Shown in pieces: positions 40,347-42,546 of a DNA stretch of 64,000 nt. Made by a program: the position numbers and the translations under genes. Within the stretch, counting starts at the first letter, position 1; each line of letters begins with the position of its first letter. The notes below the pieces were generated by a model, which saw only the letters and a list, made by a program, of their open reading frames with translations, searched no databases and was not told the origin of the DNA. The stretch comes from Alphaproteobacteria bacterium (GTDB lineage Bacteria > Pseudomonadota > Alphaproteobacteria > MPNO01), in NCBI GenBank assembly GCA_964291675.2, contig OZ219866.1, forward strand, positions 2,080,001 through 2,144,000, written 5' to 3'.

Positions 40347-40447
40347 GCTACGCTCCTGGCTTCCCGGACCCGGTCAGGGCAGCAGCACCTTGTCGAGGAA
40401 GAACAGGCCGGGGCTCACATACCGATGTGACCAACCAGCATTTCTCA

Positions 40448-42430
40448 GTGCGCCGTGGAAAGGCGCTGTTCCTCAGCGGGTGCGAACCCCGCCCGGCAAC
40501 TGTCGCTCCGGCCGGTAGCAATCGGGGCGGTTGAAGGAGGCAACGACTTCGGCTGAAGCACTTCGGTGCAACGGGCCGCCTTGGGCGGCTTAGCGACCAT
40601 GCGGGCCGCAACGCGAGTGAACGCCGAGCAGGCCTCGAAACGGGCGATGCGGAGGCCGACCCGCCTGAGAAACGGGGAAGGCTGTAATCGGTCGGGAAGC
40701 GAGCGACGCGCGCACCGGCCGGCTCCGCCGGGGTAGTGGCGGCGGCACGCATGGAAGAGGGGGACGGTGGCAACACGGGAAGCCCTGACGGTGGCGTGGC
40801 ACGCGCCAACCGGAACCTCGCGAGGGGCAGGCCGGGCCGTCAGGGTGGCGGAGGGGCTTGTATTACCGCGGAAGCCGGGTAACGCCGGTGGAGGGAAGGA
40901 GCCCTGGTTCGAGAGCGATGCGGGAAGGAGCGAAGGCATGGCCACTGGCGAGAGCCTAGCAGGGCCGGAGCGGGTTCGGAAACTCCAGACCGTATTACAT
41001 GCGAAAGCCAAGGAAGAACCCGAGCGGCGTTTTCATTCGCTGATCGACAAGGTGTGGCGCGAGGACTTTCTTGCCGAAGCCTGGCGGCGGGTGCGCCGCA
41101 AGGGCGGCTCCGCCGGGGTGGATGGAGAGACGTTGGCGGACATCGAGCGATACGGCGTGGGGCGCTGGCTTGGGGAACTGGCGCGGGAACTGAAGGATGG
41201 AGCGTACACACCGAAGCCGGTACGGCAGGTGCTCATCCCGAAGAAGCAGCCCGGCAAGTTCCGGCCCTTGGGCATCCCCTGCATCCGGGACCGGGTGGCG
41301 CAGACATCGGCTCTGCTGGTGCTTGAGCCGATATTCGAAGCGGACCTGCAACCGGAACAGCACGCCTACAGGCCGGGGCGGAGCGCCCACGACGCGGTAA
41401 GGCGCGTCCACAGCCTGCTTAACACGGGGCACAACGAGGTGGTCGATTGCGACCTGTCCAACTACTTCGGCGAAATCCCGCATACCGAGCTTCTCAAGAG
41501 CTTCGCCCGGCGCATTGGCGACGGGCGGATGCTCAAGCTCATCAAGGCGTGGCTGGAAATGCCGGTGGAGGAGGACGACGGCGAAGGCGGCAAGCGCCGC
41601 ACGAACCGGGCGCGCAGAGAGCGGAAAGGCATCCCGCAGGGGGCGCCGATAAGTCCGCTGGCCAGCAACCTCTACATGCGGCGCTTCATACTGGGCTGGA
41701 AGGCGCTGGGCTTCGCCCGGCGCCTGCGTTCGGAAATCGTGAACTACGCCGACGATCTCTGCGTGCTCGGCAAGGCTCCGGCGGCGGAAACGCTGGCGGC
41801 GGTCGAGCGGCTCGTGGACGGTCTGAAGCTGGCGGTCAACGAACGCAAAACCCGATGCCTGCGGTGCCCGGAGGAGGCGTTCGAGTTCCTCGGATACCGT
41901 ATCGGACGCAATTATCGACCGCACGGGAAGGGCGCCTATATCGGCACCCGGCCCAGCAAGGCGAGCGTCCGGAGCATCTGCCGCAGGATCAGCGAGATGA
42001 CGGCGCGGCGCTACAGCCGGCAGCCGCCGGAGGCGATGGTGGAAAGCCTGAACCGGGTCATGACCGGATGGGCGAACTACTTCAGCCTCGGCCAGGTCAG
42101 CCCGGCCTACGGCGCGATCGACCGCCACGCGATCCGGCGGCTTCGCCGGTGGCTCTGTCTCAAGCACAAGGTGAGGAACGGGAAATACGTGCGCTTCCCG
42201 GACACGAGGCTGCGCGACGAATACGGCCTCACCCGCCTGTCGCCGAGGACCAGGGGCCTTCCGCATGCGAAGGCATGATCTCGTCCGAAAGCCGGATGCG
42301 GGAAATCCGCACGTCCGGTTTGATGAGCGGGGGCTGGAAACGCGGCCATGGGCGCCGGACTGAGGCCCGGTGCGAAAGCGCCGGACAAGCCACCGGACCC
42401 TAAAGCTGGCGCGCCAGTCCTCGACTCCAC
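40448..42430 (+). mobile_element. Complete group II intron (IIB-like RNA, 1983 nt)
   Basis: 5' GTGCG at 40448; domain V AAGCCGGATGCGGGAAATCCGCACGTCCGGTTT at about 42289-42321; 3' end CTCGACTCCAC. Removing it rejoins a MITE end. Confidence 0.93.
40938..42278 (+). CDS. ltrA: Group II intron reverse transcriptase/maturase without an endonuclease domain
   Basis: RPLGIPCIRDR, DLSNYF, GIPQGAPISP, YADD, FEFLGY, domain X GWANYF; no C-terminal HNH. Confidence 0.93.
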   Translation: MATGESLAGPERVRKLQTVLHAKAKEEPERRFHSLIDKVWREDFLAEAWRRVRRKGGSAGVDGETLADIERYGVGRWLGELARELKDGAYTPKPVRQVLIPKKQPGKFRPLGIPCIRDRVAQTSALLVLEPIFEADLQPEQHAYRPGRSAHDAVRRVHSLLNTGHNEVVDCDLSNYFGEIPHTELLKSFARRIGDGRMLKLIKAWLEMPVEEDDGEGGKRRTNRARRERKGIPQGAPISPLASNLYMRRFILGWKALGFARRLRSEIVNYADDLCVLGKAPAAETLAAVERLVDGLKLAVNERKTRCLRCPEEAFEFLGYRIGRNYRPHGKGAYIGTRPSKASVRSICRRISEMTARRYSRQPPEAMVESLNRVMTGWANYFSLGQVSPAYGAIDRHAIRRLRRWLCLKHKVRNGKYVRFPDTRLRDEYGLTRLSPRTRGLPHAKA

Positions 42431-42546
42431 CCAGGGTCATGGTCTGCGCGGCGCTGTCCGGCCGACAGGGCAGGAGAGGCGCGCGGCGCGATGCGGCACA
42501 TCGGGCAAGCGCGTCTGCGCACCCTGTCGGCCGGACAGCGCCGCCC
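42431..42546. repeat. Continuation of the MITE copy interrupted by the intron (its first part is at about 40431-40447)
   Basis: CCAGGGTCATGGTCTGCGCGGCGCTGTCCGGCCGACAGGG...CCCTGTCGGCCGGACAGCGCCGCCC matches 29035-29151. Confidence 0.9.

Follow-up and report, generated by a model that had tools for sequence, protein, structure and literature searches.

A group II intron in the end of a MITE

The window, a 64,000-nt stretch of an alphaproteobacterial genome (assembly GCA_964291675.2, contig OZ219866.1; positions 2080001-2144000 of contig C2 of the 4.8-Mb genome G000), contains an intact group II intron that is inserted in the terminal inverted repeat (TIR) of a MITE (miniature inverted-repeat transposable element). 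The 5′ exon consisted of a degenerate target-duplication position (40431-40434, CCAA; consensus CTAG) followed by TIR nt 1-13 (40435-40447, CCAGCATTTCTCA) and ended in TTCTCA, and the element resumed beyond the intron, where positions 42436-42549 were 93.9% identical in BLAST to nt 19-133 of an intact, intron-free MITE at 29022 in the same window. The intact MITE (29022-29285) offered two perfect empty targets, with insertion points after 29034 on the forward strand and before 29273 on the reverse strand. A sequence-only reading of the window had placed the intron at 40448-42430 within a MITE copy, and this was borne out by the exact Rfam ends and by flanks that consisted of TIR and MITE body. 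All of the sequences listed by that reading were present at their positions, including TGAGAA, ATGCGG and the empty 12-mers at 29023-29034 (+) and 29273-29284 (-).

The intron had the features of a mobile group II intron, namely a 5′ end of the form GUGYG and an open reading frame (ORF) between the domain-I and domain V/VI matches (Table 1). The Rfam domain-I model RF02003 matched 40474-40616 with 86.7 bits, and the match to RF00029 (D5/D6) terminated exactly on the 3′ splice site at 42430. The intron-encoded protein (IEP) matched the NCBIfam group II reverse transcriptase (RT)/maturase model TIGR04416 with 316 bits. Its Pfam domains were RVT_1 (100-322) and GIIM (345-414) only, with no DNA-binding/HNH endonuclease domain after domain X, consistent with the earlier description of the intron as endonuclease-less (En-less). 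The hallmark of IIB introns is a separate exon-binding site 3 (EBS3), distant from EBS1, that pairs with exon position +1; here, intron column 289 covaried with +1. By eye, the translation ended in ...EYGLTRLSPRTRGLPHAKA, and the class-D motif LX3AX3PXLF[V/A]HW was not present. The best plasmid-borne relatives of the IEP were 50-56% identical to it. The one usable sequence signature for class assignment in the part of PMC3552965 that was accessible is FADD for group g2, and the IEP has YADD. A single-sequence fold of D1-D4a was uninformative (z-score -0.01 vs shuffles).

Table 1 Features of the intron locus and of the intact MITE in the window
Feature	Position	Strand	Basis or remark
Intact intron-free MITE with CTAG duplications	29018..29289	.	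MITE proper 29022-29285, 264 bp
rnpB, RNase P RNA gene	39972..40349	+	Rfam RF00010, 285 bits
5′ exon	40431..40447	+	Target-duplication position and TIR nt 1-13
Group II intron, IIB-like	40448..42430	+	1983 nt, intact; GTGCG at 5′ end, Rfam matches
Basal helix of subdomain Id, 5′ strand CCAUGCG (nt 150-156)	40597..40603	+	Pairs with 40748-40754 (CGCAUGG, nt 301-307)
EBS2, CGGGC, intron nt 194-198	40641..40645	+	Pairs with exon -14..-10 (GCCCG); covariation
EBS1, UGAGAA, intron nt 219-224	40666..40671	+	Hairpin loop; pairs with exon -6..-1 (TTCTCA)
EBS3, G, intron nt 289	40736	+	Pairs with first 3′-exon base, C at 42431
IEP, RT and maturase	40938..42278	+	446 aa, ORF in domain IV
Domains V-VI	42287..42430	+	Rfam RF00029, 41 bits vs gathering score 40
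3′ exon, MITE from nt 14 to ~nt 133	42431..42545	+	BLAST vs intact MITE; internal inverted repeat
IS1634-family insertion sequence (IS) including duplications	42546..44566	-	IS proper 42550-44562; transposase 42663-44462 (-)

Copies of the intron and occupancy of its targets

Four full-length copies of the intron were found in G000, and all four were inserted after nt 13 of the MITE TIR. A 92-94% identical intron in genome G013, which belongs to the same genus, also had both junctions within the same TIR, and the TIR specialization that had been proposed from the window was thus upheld in the four G000 copies and in G013. The four G000 copies differed pairwise at 0-13 of 1983 nt (0-0.66%), with none of the differences in the EBS loops and with identical boundaries. 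Their IEPs were all intact and differed by 0-5 aa. The 5′ exons ended in TTCTCA (two copies), TTCCCG and TTCTCG, and the 3′ exons began with CCCCTGTCA or CCAGGGTCA. The MITE bodies beside the introns were 93-94% identical, or ~61-64% for the one copy that occupied the opposite end type of a MITE, and the upstream flanks were unrelated to one another. Since the introns differed by 0-0.66% while their host MITEs differed by at least 6-7%, the copies appear to have arisen by independent retrohoming.

Candidate ends in G000 numbered 52, of which 13 paired perfectly with the intron. Of these 13 ends, one was occupied and 12 were empty, in line with the earlier statement that empty perfect targets remain. 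The occupied ends scored 12, 11.5, 10.5 and 10 of 12. Because nearly all perfect ends were empty and imperfect ends were occupied, the intron seems to be far from saturating its targets and to tolerate mismatches. A genome-wide count of the exact 12-mer singled out by the sequence-only reading gave 7 occurrences in 4.8 Mb, each in a TIR-like context. The mean for 200 shuffled 12-mers of the same composition was 0.22 occurrences, with one shuffle also reaching 7.

Exon-binding sites

The pairing between intron and target was analyzed in a comparative set made up of the best 80 of 550 confirmed relatives (IEP identity 75-88%, many phyla), an 86%-identical intron present 15 times in genome G019, and incomplete copies from G009 and G011-G013. 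Of 81 aligned loci, 17 failed to align at their 5′ end with GTGYG/GCGYG (among them L049, L052, L053, L079, L082 and L085) and were excluded from the EBS tests and from the consensus fold. For its +1 column, the intron/exon column scan disregarded tandem-intron junctions.

EBS1 formed runs of at least 5 pairs with the exon in 44 of 51 combinations, compared to 12.5% of controls, and it tracked the exon from one genome to another (UGAGAA/TTCTCA in the window and in G013; CGUGCU/AGCACG in G019). This covariation across ~50 related intron/site pairs confirmed UGAGAA, which had been read as EBS1 from the window sequence; in the window copy, the intron-binding site IBS1 (40442-40447) paired at 6 of 6 positions. 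The partner of EBS2, IBS2, was composed of the last base of the target duplication and TIR nt 1-4. The stretch that reads CGGGC in the window varied among the relatives. In a fixed register, EBS2 and IBS2 formed Watson-Crick pairs at 2.56 of their 5 positions on average vs 1.27 in mismatched-partner controls, and four or more of the five positions paired in 15 of 52 combinations vs 1.8% of those controls. The intron thus paired with its 5′ exon through both EBS1-IBS1 and EBS2-IBS2, as judged from covariation with controls and as is required of a group II intron. EBS3 was the best column for exon +1 (0.88 observed vs 0.47 expected, four pair types), and the G019 intron had A at this position and T at +1.

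A scan of all intron columns against all exon positions in 58 distinct rows connected nt 219-224 with -1..-6, nt 195-198 with -11..-14, and nt 289 with +1. The consensus fold, built from 31 distinct sequences, left EBS1, EBS2 and EBS3 all unpaired. The corrected target has the G of CTAG and CCCG as IBS2, a linker of three bases, TTCTCA as IBS1 and C as IBS3, and the three sites, with CGGGC as EBS2, matched the consensus TIR at 12 of 12 positions.

Homing mechanism and alternative explanations

Together, these results make it very likely that the window contains an En-less IIB-like mobile intron whose natural homing site is the TIR tip of an IS1634-related MITE family. In the proposed mechanism, EBS2 (CGGGC) pairs with the last CTAG base and TIR nt 1-4, EBS1 (UGAGAA) with TIR nt 8-13, and EBS3 (G) with TIR nt 14, and the intron would reverse-splice after TIR nt 13. 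An En-less IEP implies the use of a single-stranded DNA target and of a primer at the replication fork, and by analogy with other En-less introns cDNA synthesis would be primed by the nascent lagging strand. As near-identical intron copies sit in diverged targets, we infer retrohoming activity and an intron that is currently splicing and mobile. With its target in an inverted repeat, the intron has one site per strand available on every MITE, in non-coding multicopy DNA.

The sequence-only reading described the same intron with another EBS2, ATGCGG (40599-40604), which would pair with CCGCAT at -12..-7 and give a contiguous 12-nt match to the TIR. This 6-nt complementarity is real, an extension brings it to 8 nt (AUGCGGGC with GCCCGCAU), and the partial Rfam D1 model draws the stretch as an 11-nt hairpin loop. 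However, ATGCGG was invariant in 43 of 52 related intron/site combinations despite unrelated exons, and the 15 copies in G019 retained it although their exons were without GCCCGCAT. Its pairing with exon -12..-7 resembled that of mismatched controls (1.81 vs 1.74 of 6 positions; five or more paired positions in 2 of 52 combinations vs 4.6% of controls), and no exon position mapped to intron columns 152-157 in the unbiased scan. In the consensus fold the stretch instead belonged to a helix between nt 150-156 and 301-307, which had compensatory double changes at 3 of 7 pairs (152/305, 153/304 and 156/301), with L090, L110 and L120 carrying such changes. Burial of ATGCGG in a stem was the very outcome that the sequence-only reading had named as speaking against itself. 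We therefore regard ATGCGG as almost certainly not EBS2, and because it is not EBS2 the former count of 12 matches in 12 is not meaningful.

Passive spread, in which a single entry of the intron was followed by transposition or duplication of the intron-bearing MITE instead of retrohoming, would suit copies c3 and c4, whose introns were identical and whose 3′ MITE bodies shared 114 of 115 positions. However, the TIR tips 5′ of these two introns differed at 4 of 13 positions and their upstream flanks were unrelated, and in the other copy pairs an intron divergence of at most 0.66% stood against a MITE-body divergence of 6-39%. With one copy at the opposite end type, and with a split TIR that should hinder recognition by the transposase, passive spread is very improbable. 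Another explanation is targeting guided by structure or protein, with the palindromic MITE structure or a distal motif being recognized and base pairing being secondary. The MITE is indeed highly palindromic, several intron variants in the genus all lie 12-13 nt past a YTAR, and a protein could read the conserved YTAR just upstream of IBS2; selection experiments with the intron RmInt2 recovered CT upstream of IBS2, according to the accessible part of PMC4615759. Such targeting is nevertheless improbable given the clear covariation of EBS1, EBS2 and EBS3 of normal IIB length, the lack of a stem-loop directly 5′ of the insertion site, and the G019 variant, which entered five non-repeat sites having only IBS1-like bases in common.

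Several observations weigh against base-paired homing of a currently mobile intron to the TIR tip. Occupancy did not track pairing quality, as shown by the 12 empty ends among the 13 that pair perfectly. The IBS2 of the window copy (40434-40438) paired with EBS2 at just 3 of 5 positions, and the EBS2 covariation seen in the sequence comparison was moderate. In a floating-register test that allowed G-U pairs, the CGGGC loop gave a weak signal (4.61 vs 4.12), and the ATGCGG loop scored 4.06 vs 4.07; this test was too noisy at 69% GC and was therefore replaced by the fixed-register test and the column scan. From the sequence, the class assignment of the intron would go no further than IIB-like. 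A ligated-exon contig joining 40447 to 42431 was not found in four public runs, which consist of short contigs of complex communities rich in related introns and of which one holds 65% of words; where an intact TIR continues at 42431, the contig most plausibly represents another, empty MITE copy. Polymorphism between occupied and empty states was not seen at any occupied site.

Further points concern the replication strand and the origin of the MITE. In G019, dnaA is located at 2.66 Mb of the 5.32-Mb contig C2, with 4 of 5 intron copies on the + strand to its right and 8 of 10 on the - strand to its left. If the replication origin is near dnaA, the sense strand of 12 of 15 copies would be on the lagging-strand template (one-sided binomial ~0.018, calculated by hand), a bias that speaks for the fork-dependent mechanism and for which the origin is taken from dnaA alone, as an assumption. 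In G000, the GC skew (~0.005) was too weak to place the origin or to judge a strand bias, and dnaA and the skew disagreed. The IS1634-family IS in G000, as judged from its sequence, is probably to be regarded as a relative of the MITE and not as a demonstrated parent.

The host MITE family and the surroundings of the window copy

The MITE family in G000 comprised 15 paired elements of 106-264 bp with 22-nt TIRs, plus fragments, and was judged to be non-coding from its size only. A fuzzy TIR search of G000 (at most 5 mismatches of 22) yielded 48 further TIR-like ends, and the same search with five scrambled 22-mers as controls yielded 1, 0, 2, 37 and 0 matches, one of the controls being noisy. 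The family was matched in all 11 other genomes of the genus. At the locus in G013 that is orthologous to that of the intact window MITE, the site was empty and read AGAGA-CTAG-AGCGC, with G000 having CTAG on both sides of the 264-bp element. As the empty site carries a single CTAG, the MITE is a real, mobile insertion. This site fits a 4-bp CTAG duplication, and a TA duplication of the IS630 type was rejected for this reason and in view of the perfect non-palindromic 4-bp duplications (CTAA and TTAG) of the IS copies in G000. Identical 4-bp flanks were retained by only 4 of the 15 MITEs. At 2622-2742, the window also contained part of a MITE, nt 146-266, including one TIR end.

The two TIRs of one MITE carried the same variants, with 1.06 mismatches within elements compared to 3.45 between elements (17 elements), a value that was reached in none of 10,000 permutations. 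Examples were the elements at 29022-29285 of the window, C2:1523936-1524199 and C2:361057-361239, and the c3 and c4 tips, which differ at 4 of 13 positions, each matched the other end of their own element. Possible sources of the matched variants are subfamily structure, copying of one end to the other in transposition, and hairpin-mediated conversion.

The intron started 98 nt downstream of rnpB on the same strand, and neither a terminator-like nor a promoter-like site was found between the two. The intron-bearing MITE was truncated by an IS, since the sequence past the right CTAA was not MITE, and three nested mobile elements (intron, MITE and IS) thus lie directly downstream of rnpB. The IS was flanked by 4-bp CTAA duplications (42546-42549 and 44563-44566), and its transposase matched NF033559 with 298 bits vs a cut-off of 100, which assigned it to the IS1634 family. 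Three identical copies of this IS occurred in G000, each with a perfect 4-bp YTAR duplication (CTAA, CTAG and TTAG). Its TIR, CCCGACTTCCGCAACTC, agreed with that of the MITE at 12 of 18 positions, counted by eye. The TIR likeness and the common 4-bp YTAR duplication rule indicate that the MITE has IS1634-type ends. An IS with ends identical to those of the MITE was not found in G000, and no transposase was found at six solitary TIR-like matches in G000 that were checked for an autonomous element.

Relatives of the intron and their targets

The IEPs of the relatives (L049-L128, 75-88% identity) came from metagenome-assembled genome records titled Alphaproteobacteria, Gammaproteobacteria, Binatia, Nitrospinota, Thermodesulfobacteriota, Bryobacterales and others. 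From sequence comparison, this suggests that one intron lineage may have spread horizontally across phyla, and recently. In G000 itself, two short fragments of related introns were found at C2:718-884 and C2:680972-681024 (91% and 87% identity).

In genome G020, an intron with a 78% identical IEP, EBS1 UGUUAA and EBS2 CGGGC occupied 3 of 12 left ends examined (out of 22 matches) of a ~21-copy IS1634-family IS, again after TIR nt 13. Another copy (L122) was located at the apparent right end of an IS1634-family IS, whose transposase was recognized by eye. Same-genus variants in G009, G011 and G012 had 5′ exons with a YTAR followed by CCCG-like bases 12-13 nt before the splice site, which are candidate element ends. 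The G009 copy (L048, C1:4372966-4377705) was interrupted by ~2.75 kb near intron nt 915-920.

Other relatives were found at different targets. At L092 (3002-4120), a related intron preceded the gene of an IS110-family transposase (NF033542, 308 bits) by ~95 nt, and the intron host there is an IS of a different family, IS110. At L083, a relative was located upstream of an apparent threonine synthase gene, judged by eye. The site at L110 is not a repeated element, because its 3′ exon was single-copy in its genome. The sister intron in G019 (C2; L033-L047) had EBS1 CGUGCU(C), and its 15 copies differed by at most 1 nt. Of these, 10 were inserted in a different dispersed repeat (...GGAGGACCCGCAGGGTTG...GAGCACG followed by TGTGGCACAATGGGA...) and 5 in unique-looking, non-repeat sites having only IBS1-like bases in common. 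Judging from these sites, the intron appears to have been retargeted, within a single genus, to a new niche among repeats. An inverted copy of the reconstituted target within ~1.3 kb downstream was found at none of 80 loci, a weak test as a full IS exceeds this flank.

Head-to-tail tandem introns without an exon between them were found at L078, L090, L093, L095, L096, L107, L115 and L123, the junction being ...GACTCTAC joined to GTGCGCCG.... At L100 and L103, a second intron followed 22-46 nt downstream, after a repeated target.

Comparison with known introns

Class IIC introns are likewise En-less and reside in non-coding repeated palindromic DNA such as terminators and attC sites. They have a very short EBS1 and no EBS2, and they need a stem-loop 5′ of the site. 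In contrast, the intron studied here has a 6-nt EBS1, a 4-5-nt EBS2, an EBS3 and no 5′ stem-loop. Unlike this intron, RmInt1 reportedly has its target inside an IS and not in a terminal repeat, and so has one site per element. RmInt1, found in ISRm2011-2, is similar in being En-less and in homing to a multicopy IS, and it uses EBS1, EBS2 and EBS3, protein contacts and the nascent lagging strand at forks; it differs in belonging to class D (accessible part of PMC4615759).

The closest precedent is RmInt2 of Sinorhizobium meliloti GR4, located in the inverted repeats of ISRm17 (RNA Biol 2014, PMC4615759), a prior example that the sequence-only reading missed. According to the part of that paper that was accessible, the use of single-stranded DNA and of a fork primer is established for both RmInt1 and RmInt2, and the argument of two sites per element on opposite strands was already printed for RmInt2 in 2014. 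As described there, RmInt2 is also an En-less IIB intron with all copies inside the inverted repeats of a transposable element, its IBS2 is at -14..-10, adjoining or overlapping CTAG, and it tolerates imperfect EBS2 pairing (4 of 5), all of which resemble the present intron (PMC4615759). Its lagging-strand bias and head-to-tail tandem copies have likenesses among the relatives of the present lineage. In contrast to our intron, the same source assigns RmInt2 to ORF class D with the C-terminal motif LX3AX3PXLF[V/A]HW, its host is a full IS and ours a non-autonomous MITE bearing IS1634-family-like ends, and its mobility is experimental whereas here mobility is deduced (PMC4615759). Because the class-D motif is missing and the best plasmid-borne relatives of the IEP are 50-56% identical to it, the intron in the window appears to be a different lineage with the same strategy as RmInt2. 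A published group II intron in a MITE TIR was not found in the literature covered, which was partial and included the accessible parts of PMC9769881 and PMC4853749. In view of RmInt2, transposon-end targeting by a group II intron is not new, and the present intron adds to it a non-class-D lineage, a MITE host and IS1634-type ends.

Implications

It is doubtful, although conceivable, that an intron sub-clade across several phyla is a hyperparasite devoted to the ends of IS1634-type transposons. Such a sub-clade is favored by the +13 position that G000 and G013 (MITE) share with G020 (a full IS1634-family IS with a different TIR and EBS1), as it is by the YTAR and CCCG-like 5′ exons in G009, G011 and G012. 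On the other side, other relatives lie beside an IS110 transposase gene, upstream of an apparent threonine synthase gene or within unrelated repeats, and TIR variation was not concentrated in the IBS positions. If this were true, EBS2 would stay anchored on the conserved YTAR-CCCG tip, and EBS1 would follow TIR nt 8-13, which vary from one IS or MITE variant to the next. Part of the fast, two-ended covariation seen in the MITE tips could then be due to escape from the intron or to damage by it, as the intron splits the end that the transposase binds.

A methodological lesson is that a plausible EBS2 read off a single sequence can be wrong. The comparative set, which comprises 27 intron types with known natural targets, amounts to a map of EBS1, EBS2 and EBS3 that could serve for retargeting this compact En-less intron. 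With four independent insertions and its relatives, the intron very probably provides a clean natural example of a retroelement living in the ends of another mobile element. The TIR niche would be neutral for the host, multicopy and available on both strands, and the precedent of RmInt2 and ISRm17 would be broadened by another intron lineage, by ends of the IS1634 type and by a host, the MITE, that is non-autonomous.

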